Origin: Psammoneis japonica
Lineage: Eukaryota
Direction: 5' to 3'
DNA length: 64,000 bases
Assembly: GCA_008632985.1 (NCBI GenBank)
Contig: QPGO01000229.1
Location: 1 to 64,000, forward strand
Each line of letters starts with the position of its first letter. Within the stretch, counting starts at the first letter, position 1. Of this stretch, positions 4,064-13,700 are shown in pieces. Both the position numbers and the translations under genes were made by a program. The notes below the pieces were generated by a model. It was not told the origin of the DNA. It searched no databases and saw nothing but the letters and a program-made list of their open reading frames with translations.

Positions 4064-4555
4064 TTGTCTAAAAAGTTCGAGATGCTTTTTCAGACCAGTT
4101 GAACACCAAACAAAACACCGCGTTTCCAAAGCAACCGCTAACGTTTCTGCCAACAGCTGTCGCCGGTTTCCAGTGCTCGCCAATGAGATGTAGGAAATGA
4201 AAGTCCTTATTCTGTAGTTGAACGAATGCGGCAACATAAGAGGTGAGCTGACGAGCGAGCGCGAGTTCAGAGTGATGAAAAGTTGTGAGTCAGTCGCGGG
4301 AGAGATGGATGAAGATAACCCGGAAGGTACGTTACTTTGTCCCCAAGTTGCGTAGAACTTGGTACGTTTCTACCTGGGTCGTGGGTTTTGGTCGCGTGAG
4401 TTCGATGATGGCGGGGCGGGAGTGATGAGTGATGTTGATGTCAAAAAGCAAAACGCGAAGAGGCAGAACAACACACATGTCAAAACGTGAACATGACAAG
4501 GCAGAATACTCAACTGCTGTCAGCGCTCACGAGTATGTAGGACTGTCAACTTTCT

Positions 4556-6930
4556 ATGATGAGCACGAATAATATTGAAAAACCAGGTGATCCTCGATTG
4601 GGCAGCTTGCTGCATGAGGGGCTGAACGGTGACATTGTTTTTGTACTCTGGCCGTGTGATGAGGTATGCTAGAACGTTGCTCCGTTTGATGCGACTTGGT
4701 CTACCGTGCATAGATCCTAATCATTCATTGTGAATTGCGATGTATTTTATTTACAGGGTGTCAAGCGAAACGGGGGACGACTTGGTGCGGCAGGAGCGCC
4801 TGCGAGGTTTCTACAGTTTCTTAAAAGCATGGGAACTATCCATAATCCGGAGTATGACATCGATTTGTCATCCATTGAATTGTCGTATTATTTTGTCAAC
4901 CTAAAAGATCTGGATTTTGACAAGGACAAAGGTGCATTGGACAAAGCGCACGATCGTCTAACGGAGATAGTATCCAAAGTGCTCGATTCGGGAGGAGTTC
5001 CCTTTTGTATCGGTGGAGGCAACGACCAATCATTTGCAAACTGGAGAGCCTTGAGGCAGTCAGTGGCAAAAGGCTCCCGAATAGGAGTTGTGAACGTCGA
5101 CGCTCACTTGGATGTTCGGCCACTTGCCAATGGACAGCCTCATTCGGGTACGCCGTTTCGGCAAATTCTGGACTACGACGCCGCAGCCAGAGACGGGACA
5201 ACAGTCTTGTGTGAATTCGCAGCTCAAGGCAGTCAGTGTAGCAAGGCCCATGCGAACTATGTAACTTGCAGGGGAGGCTCGATAATGTGGTTGAGTCAAG
5301 TACGAACCGTCGCCATGTCCCACTTTAAAGATGTTTTGGCACGCCATCATGCCTCTGGCATAGACCATGAGTTCGTGTCATTCGACTTGGACGCGATCAA
5401 AGCTTCTGACTGCCCCGGTGTCTCGTGCCCATCCAACACCGGTCTCACGGCAGAGGACGCAATAGGAATCATGAGAATGGCGGGGGAGGCAAGGCATGTA
5501 AAACTTGTGGACATGTCGGAAATGAATCCAAAGATTGAGGACTACATTACCCCTCGCCTTGCCGTGCAAATGGCGTATTCTTTTATTCTTGGCTACACGA
5601 AGCGCGACCGCGAATCAGTTCCTTTGAAAGACCGACACTTGAGCATTCCGCATCGTCGGGCTTTTCGCCTTCGTATTTCCCACCTGAGTCAGTTAGTTTG
5701 CGTCGAAGATGTTCAGAAACAGGGTTTCCGAACGGGCGAGCATATGAGGATACTCAACATTGTCGAGGATGGCACGATTCTTGTGGATCGGAATGGCCGC
5801 ATTGCTTATGCTGGTCCAGCCGAGGATGCTCCTGATGTTGACAAGGACGAAGTCGAACAGGAAATTGATGGAGAAGGCAAATCAGCCATACCTGGACTCT
5901 GTGATGGACATACACATTCCTGTTGGGCTGGTGATAGAGTGAATGAATTTTCGATGAAGCTAGCGGGCGCCACTTACATGGATATTCACAAGAAAGGCGG
6001 GGGCATAGGCTTCACTGTCAAACACACCCAACAAACTGACGAAGCGAGCTTGTACACAAGTCTGATAGAGCGACTAGATGACATGAATAAGACTGGTACG
6101 ACACTTGTGGAATGCAAAAGCGGTTACGGGCTCGATGTTACGACTGAGCTAAAAATGCTGCGAGTAATTGATAAGGCTCATCACAATCTGGGGCACGTAG
6201 ACGTTGTTGGGAATTTCTGTGGTGCGCACTCGATTCTACAAGGAATGACGGAGGAAGAAGCCTTGGATTGCGTAATAAACAAAATGATCCCGGCTTTGAC
6301 TGAGGAGAAGAAACATGGTAGAATGGCCTCGACAAGGCTAATTGACGTGTTTGCAGAAGATGGGGTATTTAGCAACTCGTCGACAAAAGCTATTCTCGAA
6401 GCTGGAGCACGAATTGGATTGCTCGGCAATTTTCACGGTGATGAACTCACGTATCAAGCATGCGGCGAACTGGCTGGAAAATGAGGTGCCGCGCAGTGAG
6501 CCACCTAGAGCATGTCAGCGATGAAGGAATTTCAGCAATGGCAGAAAGCCATACGGCAGCTATACTTCTACCCACTACGGCCTATGTGCTAAGGATGAAG
6601 CCACCCCCTGCCCGTAAACTTATCGACAACGGGGTTCCCGTTGCTCTCGGCTCAGACTTCAATCCAAACGCCCACTGCTCATCCATGGCTCACGTGATGA
6701 ATCTTGCATGCGTCACGATGCATTTGTGTGTTGAAGAAGCCCTTGTTGCCAGCACGCTTAACGCAGCATACTCAATGGGCATGCAAGAGAGTCACGGCAG
6801 TTTGGAAGTCGGCAAGCACGGCGACATTGTACTTGTAAATGCTCGACGATGGGAGCACATCATTTATCAATTCGGTGGCATCCCGCCTTTGTTCGCCGTG
6901 ATCAAAGACGGAATCGTAAGACGTTTGTAA
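4556..6930 (+). CDS. hutG-hutI: Fusion of formimidoylglutamase (HutG, arginase family) and imidazolonepropionase (HutI)
   Basis: Exon 1 at 4556-4663 (GDPRLG...WPCDE), GT-AG intron 4664-4756, then GVKRNGGRLGAAGAP, GGGNDQS, NVDAHLDVR, SGTPFRQ, SFDLDAI...PGVSCP (HutG). In the same frame follow PGLCDGHTH, GDRVNEF, GATYMDIHKKGGGI, GTTLVECKSGYG, DVFAE, HGDEL, and after a 1 nt A-run frameshift near 6480, SHLE, ALGSDFNP, GSLEVGK (HutI). Confidence 0.9.
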
Positions 6931-6969
6931 ATCCGTGTTATGCTGAGAGTTCTAGTTTACTTTGTGAGA

Positions 6970-9900
6970 TTAAAGGTGCTTCATTGGGATGTTAATGCTG
7001 TGCTTTCTCGCCGTTTCTTCTGCTTCTTCGTACCCAGCATCGACGTGGCGCATGACACCGGTAGCAGGGTCGCCTTGCAAGACTCGTCTCAAGCGCAACT
7101 CTGCTTCTTGTGTCCCATCAGCGACAATAACTTGTCCAGCATGAATAGATTTGCCAATGCCGACCCCACCTCCATGATGTATTGAAACCCAAGTTGCACC
7201 ATTCACCGAATTTATCATGGCATTGAGCAGCGGCCAGTCAGCAATAGCGTCGGAACCGTCCTTCATACTTTCAGTTTCTCTGTTTGGCGAAGCGACAGAG
7301 CCGCAATCAAGGTGATCTCTCCCTATCACGATCGGTGCTGAGATTTTACCTTGGGCTACAAGTTGGTTGATGCGTACTCCAAACGCTTCTCGTTCGCCCA
7401 TACCAAGCCAACAGATTCGACAAGGAAGCCCTTGGAATTGAACTTTTTCTTGAGCTTGATCAATCCAACGTCGAAGAGGTTCGTCATTAGGAAATAGCTC
7501 CTTCACAGCCTCGTCAGTCACCGCAATATCCCTTGGATCTCCTGATAAAGCAACCCACCGAAAGGGCCCACGACCACGACAGAACTGAGGACGAATGAAG
7601 AGGGGTACAAATCCTTGAAACGAGAAAGCTTTTTCATAGCCACCTGCTTTCGCCTGACCACGAATATTGTTTCCATAGTCAAATACTACGGATCCCTTTT
7701 CTTTGAAGCCGACCATTGATCTAACTTGCTCCACCATTGACATGATCGACCGCTTTTTGTAGTCCTCGGGGTCGGACTTTCGAAGTCGAAGTGCCTCTGG
7801 GTAGCGCATTCCATTTGGCACGTATCCGTTTAGTTCGTCGTGGGCAGAGGTTTGATCAGTCTAAACAGTTGCCACACGAGGACAGAGTTGAGGGCAATCG
7901 TTCCGCAGTAATGCATGAGAATCCTCAAAGGATGGGACTTACCACCACGTCGGGGATGATACCTCTTGCAAGTAGCGCGGGGAACACGTCTGCGGCGTTG
8001 GCGACAACCCCGACAGACAAAGGAGTGTTGTTTGCCACTGCCTCTTGACACCACGAAATTGCTTCGTCTAGAGTCTCAGTGAGGCGATCCAAATACCGCG
8101 TCCTGATTCTGCGCTGGGCTCGATCCTTGTCTACTTCGACGCAGAGAGCCACGCCGCCGTTCATAGTGATAGCAAGTGGCTGAGCACCTATGGAATGAAT
8201 GAATACGAAAATGTTGAGATCTGCCCGTGAAGAAAAAATGACGACACACAAAACAATTTGTAAGTTAGTCTACGAACCTCCCATTCCCCCGAGCCCTCCT
8301 GTGAGTACCAGCCTACCAGCGAGAGTTCCATCGTAATGCTGCCTGGCTAATTCTGCAAGAGTCTCAAAGGTCCCCTGAAGAATTCCTTGGCTTCCGATAT
8401 AAATCCATGAACCAGCAGTCATTTGGCCATACATGATTAACCCTTTCGCTTCGAGTTCGCGGAAGTAATCCCAGGTCGCCCACGATGGGACAAGGTTGGA
8501 GTTTGCTATTAGGACTCGTGGAGCATCACGGTGGCTTCGAACGACACCCACCGGCTTTCCAGACTGTACCAATAAAGTTTCATCATCCTCGAGCTCCGTT
8601 AGCACCTTTAGGATCGCGGTCAACGCTTCGTGGTTCCGTGCAGCCTTGCCGGTGCCTCCATACACAACAAGGTGGTCAGGGTCCTCTGCCACATCTGGGT
8701 CCAGGTTGTTCAAAAGCATGCGATACGCAGCCTCTTGTTGCCATCCTTTGCAGTGCATTGTCTTTTTGGGAGCCACCGTCCCGCCATTTATCTCGCTCTG
8801 ACTTGCGGCATTAAGAGCGCATTGTACCGTCTTGGAGAGAATCCCGCTTCGCACTAGACGAGCCGCGGCCGCCATGTGCGGTGCCATCTCCACATCTTCT
8901 GGAAGAAACGGAATGTTTGAGCGAACGAGATCATGTGCTGCGGATGTACCTCTCCCCATTTTGGCGTTACTACCAAGCTCTCGACGCCGATACTCGACAC
9001 CTTGTGCTGCAGCCAACAATTCGATTCCCAGAATATTCTCAAGGTTTCGGAGGATACGTCTAGCTTGTCGAACCGAGATGGGACCATTGGACACGTGATC
9101 TTCCACGTTTGCTGAAGTGGGGAGGCTGTCGGCACTAGCAGGGAAACAAAGTGCCTTGTTTTCACTGGCCAGCGCTGCCGAAGTGTACTGTGTAAGCATA
9201 AACCCCGAATTCAAGCCACCCTTTTCTGTCAGAAATGGAGGTAGAATACCATTATTGCTCGCCGGATCGGTAAGGCGATTCAGTCTCCGTTCCGAGATGT
9301 TTCCTATTTCAGTCATTGCGAGCGAGAGATCATCAAAGGTGAGTGCTAGGGGTTCCCCATGAAAGTTCCCACCGCTCTTGGCAACAGCGGATCCATCGTC
9401 TTGGAAAAAGATGAGCGGGTTGTCCGTAACACTGTTCAATTCAATGCTCAAAATCCGTCTCGCATTTTGAAAGGCGTCAGCACAAGCTCCGTGCACCTGC
9501 GGCATGCATCGAAGCGAGTACGCGTCCTGAGGATCTTCTCCGAGATCGGAACGAACAAACGTGGATCCTTCCAATAGCGCTCGCAGCTCCCTTGCCGTTT
9601 CAATCTGACTCGGGTGCGGACGAACCTTTTGAATGTCGGGATCAAGGGCTGCCGCGGTTCCGTATAACGCCTCCAACGACAACGCACCGGTAATGTTGGC
9701 CACGTGCGCACAATTCTCGGCTTCCACAATCGCTAAGCACCCCAACGCTGCCATCATGGCTGTACCGTTTGTCAATGCCAAACCTTCTTTTGCTTCCAAC
9801 TCAACTGGTTTTAATTCTACTTTTGCCAATGCCTCGGCGCCAGCAAGGACTTTTCCGTCAACCACAGCTTTTCCTTCACCAATCATGACCAGCGACATGT

Positions 9901-10360
9901 GAGCCAACGGAGCAAGGTCGCCACTCGCACCCAATGATCCTTGTCGGGCACAATGGGATGAACCTCCGTTCAATCATGTTAGCAATAGTTCAAGAGTTGT
10001 CAGTCGTATACCAGAATACCCCGAAGCCAACGTGTTTGCCCGAATGAGCATCATGGCACGAACGGCGTCGGCTTCGAGAGGCTTGCCAACTCCGGCAGCA
10101 TGAGATCGAACAATGTTGCGTTGCAATTCTTTCAAATCAGCCTTTTCGATCAAGGTCTTTCGGAATGCTCCAAATCCTGTAGTGACACCATAGACCGTCT
10201 TGTTTTCGTTTACCATTTCTTGTACGGCCTCTGCACTCTTGTTGACCGCCTCAATCGCATCTCTTGACAGTCGCAACTTTACCGTCTCTTGTTCTGCTTT
10301 TGCAATCGCCACCACATTTTCAATTGTCAGTTGATGTCCATCAATCGTTAGTTCAAACAT
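6970..10360 (-). CDS. hutH-hutU: Fusion of histidine ammonia-lyase (HutH) and urocanate hydratase (HutU)
   Basis: HAL motifs [36 protein letters not shown] (MIO Ala-Ser-Gly), [31 protein letters not shown] and EDHVS run in frame into urocanase motifs [103 protein letters not shown] and HHGGGVGIG. Introns at 8188-8277 and 7861-7942; small indels near 9945-9980. Confidence 0.92.
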
Positions 10361-10763
10361 GTTCTATAGTTTGATCGGAAGAAATAATGGGACTTGGTAT
10401 GATGATGGCGGTGTCAGAATTTTTTTGTCAGGTCGCGACCGAAAAAAAATGAGAAGCGGATGCTCACGGATGACGGACAGAACAGATAGTTTCGGTGGTG
10501 TTTCATTTTTACTGATTAAACGTTTCAGATTCCGGATTCCGATGAAAGCTAGATGCAATGACGTGTTGAGTACTACAGAAAACGTAGGATCTACATACGA
10601 GTTTCGCTGGTACTGATACCACGTAGCATCCGCCCAGTTTTGGCCTCTTTCCAGCGCCTTCGACAAAGACAGAGCGTTTCACGACAGTGCCGTTCTTGTT
10701 TCTTGTTGGGGCAAGTGTTTTGATTTGTGAGCGAGCCAACGACACCCGAGATTGATATCCATC

Positions 10764-13700
10764 ATGTCGAACGAAGTGGTAGAGAATGGTAAACAAAACG
10801 GAGAAGCAGCGGCGGCGGTTCAGCCAATACTAGGCATGGAGGGAACTCCCGCTGAAGCTCCTGCTCAGTCAAAACCCAAACCTACTTTTGCTCGTTCCGA
10901 CACAGCAGACACGTTGGAATCTTCGGAAGATGTGGACGAAGAAGAAGCGCTGCTTGTTTCCATTGAAAAGCAACAGGAAAAAGAAGACGCAGAGGAAGCG
11001 GCACACCCACACCCTCAACCCAAAGACATTGCATCTGCACCGAAATTGCTGCAGGACATGCTGAAAAAGGGAGAAGTAAAGGCGGACGAGTCAGAAGAAG
11101 AGTCAGAAAAGGAAGAGAAAGCGTCGAAAGAGGCCGCAGTAGCGAAAAAAGGAACTGAAGAAGAGAAAAAGGGCGAGGAAGGGGAGGCACCTCCGTCTCC
11201 CGTGCGACACTACCATACGAGGGTAGGTGGTATCTTTTGTCATTGTTTTGGATCCATATGTCGTGCTCGAAAGGTTGCAGTGCTTTGTTTGGTGCTGTAT
11301 TGTGCTCAGACAGGTCTTAATGAGACAAGTTGAGGGTATACAGTGAGAATGTCGAAGAAGCGGTTCTCCTGCGCTGTTTTTCGATTTTCCCGCTTTTTTT
11401 TGTTCCCTCACGTCTCGCCCACGCGTCTTTCTTACGATTTTTAAATTTCCCTCTTGTACACAGAGAAGTCAACTGGACGAGCTACTCAAGAAGGCTTCTC
11501 AGTACTCTGGTTTCATCTCCAGAGACTTGGAAGAGCTTCAAGAGTCCTTGACGCAAACCGCAAAGAAAAAAGTAAAGTCAGCCGAAAAGAGCAGAAAGCG
11601 CAAGGCAAAGGCCGGGGGCTCTTCCAAGAAGAAGTCGAAAAAGAATGATGGCGAGGCTGCTCTCAAGTCTGCGCAAGAGAAGCACGCCTCCGAAATGCTT
11701 CACGCAGGTTCGAAACCAATCTTTGTCCAGCCACCCAACTTGGCTGCCGGTTGTGTCCTCAAGGACTATCAGCTGGAGGGTGTGCGCTGGCTCACCTCCT
11801 TGTTTGAGAACGGCGTATCTGGTATCCTTGCGGATGAAATGGGTCTCGGTAAGAGAAGTTGGCCCAATTTAACCTACAGCGGATATTATTGTTTTGTGCG
11901 AGAGTGATCGAGTTGCTAACGAACGTCTTTTTTCTGCTCCCCTACTGCTGCTACTTTCCATTAGGAAAAACTATCCAGGTTATTGCGTTGATTGCGCATC
12001 TCTTGACCAAGAACGTTGCGGGACCGTTTCTCATTGTTGCTCCTCTTGCTACCCTTCCAAATTGGGTGCGCGAGTTCCAGAAATGGCTTCCGCAGAGACC
12101 CGTTCTACGCTATCACGGCAGTGCTGCCGACCGCGATGCTATGCTCAAGGGCATGATGCATCCAAAGCAACGAAAGCTTCCGACCTTTCCCTTTATTGTG
12201 ACCTCGTACGAAGTGGCCATTCGAGATCAGTCCAAGCTGGAAAAGTTGAACGAGTACACCTATCTCATTGTCGACGAAGGGCAGCGCCTCAAGAATCACC
12301 GTTGTACCCTGCTTGCATCGCTGAAGCGACTCAAGGCGAACAACCGTTTGTTGCTCAGCGGAACCCCCATCCAGAACAACTTGGACGAATTGTGGAGTCT
12401 TCTCAACTTTGTAAATCCCGATATCTTTGACGACCTTAAGGTTTTCCAGAGTTGGTTTGGTTTCAAGGATATTGGACAGATTGACAAGGGAGGTACTAAA
12501 GAAGAGGCAATCATGATGGAACAGCGCAAGAACGACACTGTCTCCAAGCTTCACGAGATTCTTCGTCCGTTCCTTCTACGACGCATCAAGAGCAATGTGC
12601 TCTCCGAGTTGCCTCCAAAGAAGGAGGTTGTGGTTTACTCGGGCATGTCCAAGTTGCAGTCCGGGTATGCGGATCTTATTGAGAAGGGTGTTCTGAGGGA
12701 TACCCTCATTAGCCAAGGTATCGAACAGGGTCGTACATTGAGCCAGACAAACAAGCAGATGAATCACCGCAAGAATGTCAACCACCCCTTTTTGTTCGGA
12801 GAACCCATTGACCCGGCCACTGGAGCGCACCTTGGAACCGCCCACCCGCAGCTTCTCGTCCGTGCCAGCGGCAAGTTTGCTCTGCTTGATCGAATGCTTG
12901 ATCGGTTGCACCGTGACAAGCACCAAGTTCTTATCTTCAGCCAAATGACATCGCTGCTGAATGTAATTGAAGACTACTTGCTCTATAGGAAGTGGAGGTA
13001 CTGCCGCATTGACGGTTCAACCAACATTGATGACCGTCAGAGTCAGATGGACAGGTTTAACGCGGAGCAGACGGCAGGCAAGGACGGAACTAGGAATGAT
13101 AGCGATGACCGCTGTTTTGTGTTTTTGCTCAGCACCAGGGCTGGTGGTCTCGGAATCAACTTGGTAAGTCATCATGGTTGGGAGCTTTATGCATTCAGCT
13201 GCTCTAGAATGGAGAGTCTCTCACCTCGTTACCATATGTCTGTTGACTGAAGGCAACGGCCGATACGTGCATCATTTTTGATAGGTACGTCGAGATTGTA
13301 CAGTACTCCATTGACAGTTGACCAGACGTTTTCTTGTTCTCTCAACTCTTTCTATTGTTGTCCTTTCTTCTTCCTACGACAGCGACTGGAATCCGCACCA
13401 GGATTCGCAGGCAATGGACAGGTGCCATCGAATTGGCCAGACTCGCCCAGTTGCAGTGTATCGCCTACTCACAGCGGGTTCTGTCGACATTGAAATGATG
13501 GAGAAGCAGATCTCGAAAAAGAAGCTCGAGCGCATGACCATCACGGGAGGCGACTTTAGAAAGGCAGGCAGCCGCTCGGTTGGAGAAAAGATCTCGTCCA
13601 ACGAGCTGAACAAGCTCTTGGAAGACGATATTAAGGATATTCACGCCAAGGGGGCGGATATTGAAAGTATCAAGATCAACGAAGACGAGTTCGATATGAT

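Follow-up and report, generated by a model that had tools for sequence, protein, structure and literature searches.

How a eukaryotic alga might come to carry an entire amino acid degradation pathway in two adjoining genes is the question raised by a locus of Psammoneis japonica, found within the first 64,000 nucleotides of contig QPGO01000229.1 (assembly GCA_008632985.1; this whole stretch, read on the forward strand, is referred to here as the window). Between positions 4556 and 10360 lie two convergent, intron-bearing genes that comprise the four enzymes of the route from histidine to glutamate in two fusions, HutG-HutI and HutH-HutU. Bacteria encode this pathway in hut operons, such as hutHUIG of Bacillus or hutUH/hutIG of enterobacteria, and animals possess four separate genes with a folate-dependent last step (FTCD). 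We consider it very probable that the locus is nuclear and consists of two intact bifunctional genes of mixed bacterial and eukaryotic ancestry that encode the four-step breakdown of histidine. As judged from their sequences, HutH-HutU (1073 amino acids) would convert histidine to urocanate and ammonium and then to 4-imidazolone-5-propionate, the C-terminal HutI domain of HutG-HutI (760 amino acids) would open the ring to yield N-formimino-glutamate, and the N-terminal HutG domain would hydrolyse this product to glutamate and formamide. We infer these enzyme activities, the co-regulation of the two genes, and a role in the use of histidine as a source of nitrogen and carbon.

HutG-HutI is located on the plus strand, from an ATG at 4556 to a TAA at 6928-6930, and has one intron of 93 nucleotides (nt); HutH-HutU is located on the minus strand, from an ATG at 10360 to a TAA at 6972-6970, and has two introns of 90 and 82 nt. 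The original prediction, made from the sequence alone, had the two genes ending tail to tail with stops 39 bp apart; these coordinates are exact (spacer, 6931-6969), and the frames are open across the domain joints. Exon 1 of HutG-HutI (4556-4663) begins with the ATG and contributes 36 codons to the start of the formiminoglutamase domain; it is followed by a GT..AG intron with the donor GTATGC (4664-4756), the HutG domain for step 4 (4757-5611), a linker of some 51 codons (5612-5764), which separates the part aligned to the PDB entry from the part matched by NCBIfam hutI, and the HutI domain for step 3 with the TAA (5765-6930). The open frame 4757-6484 contains a complete Pfam Arginase domain (E 1.9e-32), the linker and the start of the amidohydrolase domain; the stop-free stretch spans 4721-6484 and covers the HutG/HutI joint, and the frame 6445-6930 carries the remainder of the amidohydrolase and closes in the TAA.

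On the minus strand, the HutH domain for step 1 extends from the ATG at 10360 to 8816 (Pfam Lyase_aromatic, profile positions 1-114 and 127-465 of 466), and a linker of about 17 codons, lying between the NCBIfam hutH and hutU matches (8765-8815), leads in one open frame to the N-terminal part of urocanase, the enzyme of step 2 (8278-8764; Urocanase_N, 5-127 of 127), which shares its exon with HutH. A GT..AG intron (intron 1, 8188-8277) splits a glycine-rich stretch of 10 residues ahead of exon 2, which encodes the middle of the urocanase Rossmann-like domain (7943-8187; Pfam Urocanase, profile 40-121). Intron 2 (7861-7942, GTAAGT..TTTAG) is predicted from the frames and the urocanase profile, which continue exactly across it, and exon 3 (6970-7860) holds the last 296 urocanase codons and the TAA (Urocanase, profile 122-207; Urocanase_C, 1-195 of 196). 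The open frame 8270-9973 encompasses the C-terminal part of Lyase_aromatic (E 2.8e-137), Urocanase_N (E 1.2e-57) and the start of Urocanase without a stop, and the rest of urocanase occupies the frames 7925-8269 and 6970-7860. Each fusion can be read directly from a frame that stays open over the joint between its domains; in the window as given, frames of the two genes are stop-free for 575 and 567 codons.

Domain identity was tested with NCBIfam equivalog models and their cut-offs, scored on pieces of the window, with Pfam, and by sequence matches to the PDB. The hutU model (TIGR01228) matched the last exon alone at 471.7 bits, compared with a cut-off of 375, and the three exons cover profile positions 9-171, 172-252 and 253-545 of 545; the corresponding Pfam families are PF17391, PF01175 and PF17392. 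The hutH model (TIGR01225; Pfam PF00221) matched in two pieces of 141.4 bits (profile 2-121) and 464.5 bits (135-501 of 506). Its cut-off of 539.15 lies above each window piece, and their rough sum is 606; the gap in the profile is the stretch damaged by three missing bases, as described below. Histidine ammonia-lyases (HALs) form their 4-methylideneimidazole-5-one (MIO) cofactor from an Ala-Ser-Gly triad, and the corrected HutH model contains this triad within a stretch of 14 residues. Moreover, the HAL model outscores the tyrosine and phenylalanine lyase and mutase models on the HutH domain. The hutI model (TIGR01224) likewise matched in two pieces, of 226 bits (profile 2-230) and 165.1 bits (235-375 of 377), each below the cut-off of 298.15 and with a rough sum of 391, and the HutI model has an HxH, an H, an H and a D at what we take to be the metal-ligand positions. 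The best solved match of the HutG domain is the formiminoglutamase of entries 4mxr, 4myk and 2a0m (E 3e-66, 227 bits, 285 of 298 query residues aligned), presumably from Trypanosoma cruzi, and the motifs GGGNDQS, D(A/S)HLD, SFD(L/V)D and DMSE(M/L)NP align with 4mxr. Bacterial-type entries gave E 8e-18 (1xfk) and E 1e-15 (3m1r); we assume that these are the Vibrio and Bacillus enzymes, respectively. By these sequence criteria the HutG domain is a eukaryote-type arginase-fold formiminoglutamase. The Pfam, NCBIfam and PDB matches thus uphold the proposal that all four steps reside in two convergent bifunctional genes, steps 1 and 2 in one and steps 3 and 4 in the other. An arginase-type HutG had also been taken as a sign of the Bacillus/enterobacterial route; the enzyme type is as proposed, but it is not confined to that route, as the best solved match and the occurrence of this type in the eukaryotes Capsaspora, Paraphysoderma and Planoprotostelium indicate. 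Neither protein has an N-terminal extension before its first domain, and both are therefore predicted to be cytosolic.

In the window as given, the coding frames are broken by a one-base frameshift at 6481/6482 and, near 9945-9978, by an in-frame TGA with a compensated frameshift. Public runs were searched for the window stretch; the share of sampled window words was 0.99 in run X1 and 0.92 in run X2, and run X3 contained none. All three runs are of one sample, and X1 may represent the source sample of the window assembly. When the contigs of X1 and X2 were aligned to positions 4400-10500, exactly four length differences were found, all of them single-base insertions relative to the window: a T after 6481, a G after 9945, a C after 9962 and a T after 9978. 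At each site one contig per run gives coverage, and it contains the extra base in X1 (word depth 62) as well as in X2; X1 has no base substitutions relative to the window, and three of the four missing bases are plain homopolymer-length differences. The corrected, intron-free models of 760 and 1073 amino acids contain no internal stops, and the repaired HutH stretch ends in a segment of 14 residues without a stop. Because the contigs of both X1 and X2 restore the missing bases, the frameshift and the TGA are single-base assembly deletions and both genes are intact rather than pseudogenes, with the caveat that the two runs derive from one sample; the original prediction had allowed that the indels might be real, and this check came out against that possibility. 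The deletions amount to four in 6 kb of assembly relative to the contigs of two runs. Other frames of the window that look broken, such as the overlapping SNF2 frames 11347-11907 and 11853-13250, may be similar artefacts, and single-base deletions that falsely break genes are a practical caution for users of this assembly.

The same contigs bear on splicing and expression. Contigs of X2 join exactly across the 93-nt intron (4664-4756; joint 4663/4757) and the 90-nt intron (8188-8277), and X1 retains both; another X2 contig (8160-8305) also retains the 90-nt intron. One X2 contig (8276-10345) spans the HutH/HutU linker, and a single X2 contig begins at 4456, takes in HutG-HutI in spliced form, crosses the spacer and ends at 7861. 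This contig suggests that the 3' ends of the two transcripts overlap or abut. The intron-less contigs of X2 make it likely that the genes are expressed. At 8941-8942, in the coding region for the C-terminal part of HutH, X2 differs from both the window and X1 by a dinucleotide (C to A and G to A) that is possibly allelic. The earlier argument that spliceosomal introns speak against bacterial contamination is sustained by the exact X2 joints of two of the three introns and by the eukaryotic neighbour genes. Because it has spliceosomal introns and ordinary eukaryotic gene neighbours, the locus is ordinary nuclear DNA of a diatom-like alga rather than a bacterial contaminant.

Proteins with the same architectures were sought among longer proteins in public collections, where such proteins are already present with automatically assigned names ('urocanate hydratase', 'imidazolonepropionase' and the like). 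A search with the HutH/HutU junction frame gave 59 matches, the best five of which have 74-78% identity, 96% coverage, lengths of about 1000-1114 amino acids, and HutH together with all three urocanase domains; these five include gene model AAC.2 on scaffold112 of Amphora coffeaeformis, which was the sole close relative with a species name among the matches. The HutG/HutI frame gave 1392 matches, of which the best 12 have 100% coverage, 753-832 amino acids, and an Arginase plus an amidohydrolase domain, and include Amphora gene model AAC.3 of the same scaffold. When the fetched proteins were cut by domain, six diatom-type proteins had the order HutH-HutU (HutH 67-79% and HutU 78-84% identical to the window) and 12 had the order HutG-HutI (HutG 40-64%, HutI 61-75%). 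In Amphora, the two fusions are thus the consecutive gene models AAC.2/AAC.3, and in two further cases the paired proteins have the same longest contig (P0003/P0061, 6155 nt; P0180/P0063, 6372 nt). No model diatom appeared among the organism-named entries of the close matches listed. A metagenome scan with HutG-HutI gave four loci, none with both genes: three encode intron-rich, stand-alone HutI and one is a distant arginase-family match. Two of these HutI loci, L081 and L083, are from a microbial-mat metagenome; their HutI matches fall in at least six pieces, are about 60-70% identical to the window HutI in places, and have no HutG part upstream. Protein-atlas look-ups scored 0.81 and 0.75, under the meaningful level, and revealed no sizeable cluster of fusions.

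The HutI and HutG domains have their closest relatives among eukaryotes. Among the organism-named entries of the best 120 HutG-HutI matches there were no bacteria; the named entries are animals, Amoebozoa, Andalucia, Capsaspora, Paraphysoderma and Planoprotostelium, at 44-51% identity over the matching half. The window HutI is 33-40% identical to HutI of bacterial loci as against 46-51% to that of named eukaryotes, and the window HutG is 22-32% identical to five bacterial arginase-type sequences as against 45-49% to eukaryote-type proteins. A HutI tree was built from 94 of 151 sequences, comprising all 46 sequences from bacterial loci, all named sequences and 27 chosen unnamed ones. In this tree the window falls in a 46-sequence split with no bacterial locus inside, supported at 100 by the Shimodaira-Hasegawa-like approximate likelihood ratio test (SH-aLRT), and the 15 diatom-type sequences form one clade (100). 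In the HutG tree of 40 sequences, the 35 that do not come from bacterial loci are split from the five bacterial ones (SH-aLRT 99.7). Approximately unbiased (AU) tests reject the union of diatom-type HutI with HutI of the bacterial loci L006, L012 and L047 (p 2.5e-9), and of diatom-type HutG with HutG of L006, L046 and L047 (p 0.0055). By their sequences, therefore, both domains belong to the type known from other eukaryotes and lie inside eukaryote-only clades.

The HutH and HutU domains present a different picture. Of the top 120 longer proteins that match the last urocanase exon, the first six are diatom-type sequences at 82-84% identity, followed by stand-alone proteins of about 550 amino acids at 67-73%, with one at 58%. 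All seven organism-named, non-diatom entries among these best 120 are bacterial metagenome-assembled genomes (MAGs; 69-71%), whereas the HutU parts of Astraeus and Sphaeroforma are only 57-61% identical to the window. A scan of 1.84 billion representatives with the C-terminal part of HutH gave a best identity of 62% (P0296, a metagenome protein) and then 53-56%; of the ten best matches looked up, three were organism-named, all prokaryotic. We further collected 80 bacterial hutU loci with 10-kb flanks and extracted their Hut proteins from six-frame open reading frames (ORFs). The best bacterial HutH sequences are 52-54% identical to the window (L047, Pyrinomonadaceae; L006, Phototrophicaceae; L012, Gemmatimonadota) as compared with 43-46% for named eukaryotes, and HutU of the same three loci is about 65% identical.

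Trees of HutH agree with these comparisons. In a FastTree analysis of 217 sequences, limited to those with 75% or more of the domain covered and without the cluster members from P0446 upwards, the six diatom-type sequences fall in a starred set of 10 with P0296, L012, L006 and L047. A mixture-model IQ-TREE analysis of 65 hand-picked sequences repeated this placement with a support of 93 and put the animal/Perkinsus-type and the opisthokont-fusion-type sequences in two other clades. HutH and HutU were then concatenated (1047 columns, 54 sources with both domains at 75% coverage or more), and the resulting tree contains the split of the six diatom-type sequences plus L047, L006 and L012 with SH-aLRT 99.4 and ultrafast bootstrap (UFBoot) 100; the opisthokont fusions adjoin the gammaproteobacterial locus L026 (SH-aLRT 99.9, UFBoot 100). 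For HutH, AU tests reject a union of the diatom type with the animal/Perkinsus-type clade (p 0.0002; this set shares P0018, P0021 and P0022 with the long animal-like group) and with all eukaryote sequences (p 0.0019). For HutU, a union with both eukaryote groups is rejected (p 0.0005), and for the concatenation so are unions with the opisthokont fusions (p 5e-5) and with all eukaryote sequences (p 4e-4). On this phylogenetic evidence HutH-HutU belongs to a bacterial type and arose independently of the opisthokont fusions, and horizontal acquisition from bacteria applies to HutH-HutU only, not to HutI or HutG. The three closest genomes belong to three phyla and so do not point to a single donor lineage; because the hut genes are separate ORFs in these genomes, the fusion most likely arose after the transfer. 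Seven proteins with the order HutH-HutU (P0008, P0012-P0014, P0016, P0019 and P0020) were considered as bacterial fused donors and set aside, as they match HutH only in part and their HutU falls with Actinomycetota, at a distance from the diatom type; a 1068-codon frame of L009 was likewise rejected as a bacterial fusion, since its HutH sits in another frame (L009 7219-8775).

Two side observations concern these trees. The loci L047, L006 and L012, from Acidobacteriota, Chloroflexota and Gemmatimonadota, have a single, closely related HutH/HutU type in common (clade support 100), and because three phyla carry it, the hut set of this type is suggested to move between bacteria as well. In addition, the HutU-HutH fusion of the fungus Astraeus odoratus has its close sister in a protein whose label assigns it to a Klebsiella oxytoca MAG (P0006/P0007); this protein probably stems from a mislabelled or contaminating eukaryotic contig.

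Several points weigh against the interpretation of the locus as two intact, expressed genes of mixed ancestry that are kept together in relatives. With respect to identity, the bacterial hutG model (TIGR01227) matched the HutG domain at 147.2 bits, under its cut-off of 229.15, although it is still the top arginase-family model for this domain (agmatinase 54 bits, arginase 42 bits). With respect to transcripts, the intron at 7942-7861 has no joined contig in X2, whose contigs end at 7861 and 7943; no run is recorded as RNA, and X2, which comes from the same sample as X1, was deemed to be of cDNA type solely from its intron-less contigs. With respect to ancestry, the bacterial HutI and HutG sequences came solely from the flanks of the 80 window-like hutU loci and include five HutG sequences, a thin and biased sampling, and eukaryote sampling of stand-alone HutH and HutU is poor. 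HutU alone is placed less consistently than HutH: a FastTree analysis of 228 sequences put eight diatom-type sequences beside two Ignavibacteriota loci (92), and a mixture-model tree of 64 picked sequences grouped six of them weakly (83) with L004 and the group that holds L006, L012 and L047. The AU tests, all of which used LG+F+G4 and fast searches and are more liberal than the mixture model, reject the union with the opisthokont fusions marginally for HutH (p 0.043) and not for HutU (p 0.137); unions with the long animal-like clade are not rejected for HutU (p 0.293) or for the concatenation (P0015, P0018, P0021 and P0022; p 0.14). Finally, adjacency of the two genes in relatives is suggested by the Amphora gene numbering and the two pairs with equal contigs, not by DNA.

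The ancestry results bear on two other histories. The original prediction held that a complete four-gene bacterial hut operon was transferred, domesticated and then fused pairwise. Its bacterial element stands for HutH-HutU, which group with the hut genes of L047, L006 and L012 (UFBoot 100), and it could draw on L047 and L006, whose genomes additionally contain the bacterial arginase-type HutG sequences most similar to that of the window (identity about 29-32%), in a clade that is the nearest bacterial branch to eukaryote-type HutG in a tree with five bacterial sequences. The per-domain phylogenies that had been called for give HutI and HutG a eukaryotic affinity, however: both domains are more similar to those of eukaryotes than to those of bacteria, their eukaryote-only splits have SH-aLRT values of 100 and 99.7, and union with the very bacteria that resemble HutH and HutU is rejected for each, so that transfer of a whole operon is distinctly improbable. 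The converse history, in which all four domains descended vertically within eukaryotes and the bacterial look of HutH-HutU reflects poor sampling, long branches or transfer from alga to bacteria, gains from the thin eukaryote sampling of stand-alone HutH and HutU and from the failure of HutU alone and of the concatenation to reject the opisthokont-fusion clade and the long-branched animal-like group (p 0.137 and 0.14, respectively). We nevertheless regard it as unlikely, given that in all trees numerous bacterial phyla surround the diatom-type clade, which is joined to the three genomes with a UFBoot of 100, that HutH alone rejects both the animal/Perkinsus-type group and all eukaryotes, and that the bacterial partners have hut genes as neighbours and come from bacterial contigs of considerable length (77 kb to 3.8 Mb).

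Other explanations question the state or the function of the genes. If the frameshift and stop codon of the window were real, the genes would be decaying pseudogenes; the one-base shift in HutI and the in-frame TGA with its shifted stretch in HutH would then speak for themselves. This reading is extremely improbable, since X1 and X2 contigs contain the four missing bases, three of which are homopolymer-length differences, the frames are otherwise stop-free for 575 and 567 codons, and X2 has intron-less contigs. HutH-HutU might alternatively serve another purpose, such as a urocanate screen against ultraviolet light or the breakdown of ergothioneine or a similar derivative of histidine, with the adjacency of HutG-HutI a coincidence. 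Nothing speaks for this directly, although models of thiourocanate-type hydratases do match the urocanase part at 344-375 bits. Those models demand 880-930 bits, whereas hutU reaches 471.7 bits from one exon against a cut-off of 375; the partner gene would provide exactly the next two steps, and the same pair of architectures recurs in relatives, which makes a separate purpose very improbable.

We therefore return to the reading of a histidine degradation module of mixed ancestry. In the proposed mechanism, HutH and HutU would derive from a bacterial hut gene set and have been fused in the lineage of the alga, and the eukaryote-type HutI and HutG would have been fused separately. The fusions may tie steps 1 and 2, and steps 3 and 4, to each other in amount and place, and the adjacency of the two genes may aid their co-expression. 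The labile imidazolone-propionate would be handed from one protein to the other and not inside one. A more specific and tentative scenario, to which we would give somewhat less than an even chance, is that an ancestor of the diatom group acquired and fused bacterial hutH and hutU and fused its own HutG and HutI, that the tail-to-tail module was kept and allows the use of free histidine, and that the two proteins may form one assembly that passes on imidazolone-propionate. If this is true, the locus would be among the few documented instances in which a eukaryotic metabolic gene cluster was built from parts of different ancestry.

Comparison with known systems places the locus apart from each of them. 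Bacterial hut operons, including those of L047, L006 and L012, share with it the four enzyme families and their clustering, and the window HutH and HutU are nearest to this type; in the operons, however, the genes are separate, co-directional and intron-free, and HutI and HutG fall in other clades (33-40% and 22-32% identity). The animal pathway of HAL, UROC1, AMDHD1 and FTCD has the first three steps in common with the window, and the window HutI groups with the animal AMDHD1-type enzyme and those of other eukaryotes, but animal-type HutH falls in a different clade and HutU of animal-type triple fusions is only 31-34% identical. The histidine enzymes of Trypanosoma cruzi are four separate proteins, unlike the two tail-to-tail-encoded fusions of the window, and the window HutH and HutU are of a different, bacteria-like type. 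One report describes a complete four-step pathway from histidine to glutamate in this organism (PMC12203737), which thus has the same four reactions in a eukaryote and, as in the window, a formiminoglutamase rather than FTCD at the final step.

Fusion of Hut domains is itself recurrent in eukaryotes. The opisthokont fusions, exemplified by Sphaeroforma arctica SARC_01050 and Astraeus odoratus ID866_1119 and accompanied by two further proteins, also join the first two Hut enzymes in one polypeptide; their order is reversed (HutU-HutH), they form a separate clade beside L026, and a common origin is rejected (p 5e-5), so that on phylogenetic grounds the opisthokont and diatom-type fusions are independent. 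HutH-HutI-HutU triple fusions of 1650-1790 amino acids (P0021, P0022 and P0026), the reverse order HutI-HutG (EukProt PhM_4, P0072), and a HutI-HutH protein with an N-formylglutamate amidohydrolase domain (EukProt, P0027) differ in order or partners, and none of them pairs HutH-HutU with HutG-HutI.

A literature search of full text outside subscription journals turned up no description, for diatoms, of either fused hut genes or a hut cluster. A report on another alga (PMC12489294) lists urocanase among nitrogen-metabolism transcripts. The enzymes and the pathway are known, and the mosaic, fused, tail-to-tail combination, whose two architectures recur in diatom-type algae, appears to be undescribed. 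As the enzyme families are textbook ones, no new chemistry is to be expected, and the interest lies in the organisation and origin of the pathway: a complete amino acid catabolic route in two genes, with fusion, clustering and mixed ancestry at one locus. Two adjacent genes for four consecutive steps, with stops 39 bp apart, give the locus the adjacency of a eukaryotic metabolic gene cluster. Should histidine or nitrogen limitation prove to induce the pair, it would provide a clean marker of dissolved organic nitrogen use in diatom transcriptomes, a case study of eukaryotic gene-cluster formation, and a compact module for pathway engineering.

The remainder of the window provided some further features. 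None of the 22 large window frames that were scanned matched a further hut-related gene, and a scan of the 39-bp spacer for bacterial promoters and terminators gave nothing relevant. Larger frames elsewhere in the window match an SNF2 helicase, a GT41 glycosyltransferase, Sof1/WD40, amine oxidase, a CLC channel, DnaJ, NPL4 and GDI, and the G+C content is even over the first 16 kb of the window (0.45-0.54). In the leader of HutG-HutI, an upstream open frame of 15 codons on the plus strand (4493-4540) ends in a TAG; it is in frame with the main ATG, its TAG lies 16 nt ahead of that ATG, and an X2 contig covers 4456-4661. In the protein searches, a group of proteins of about 1000 amino acids (P0030, P0034, P0036, P0043, P0047, P0050-P0054 and P0056) combines histidine ammonia-lyase with histidyl-tRNA-synthetase-like domains (PF13393, often with the anticodon-binding PF03129), an architecture that might couple the sensing of histidine to its breakdown.

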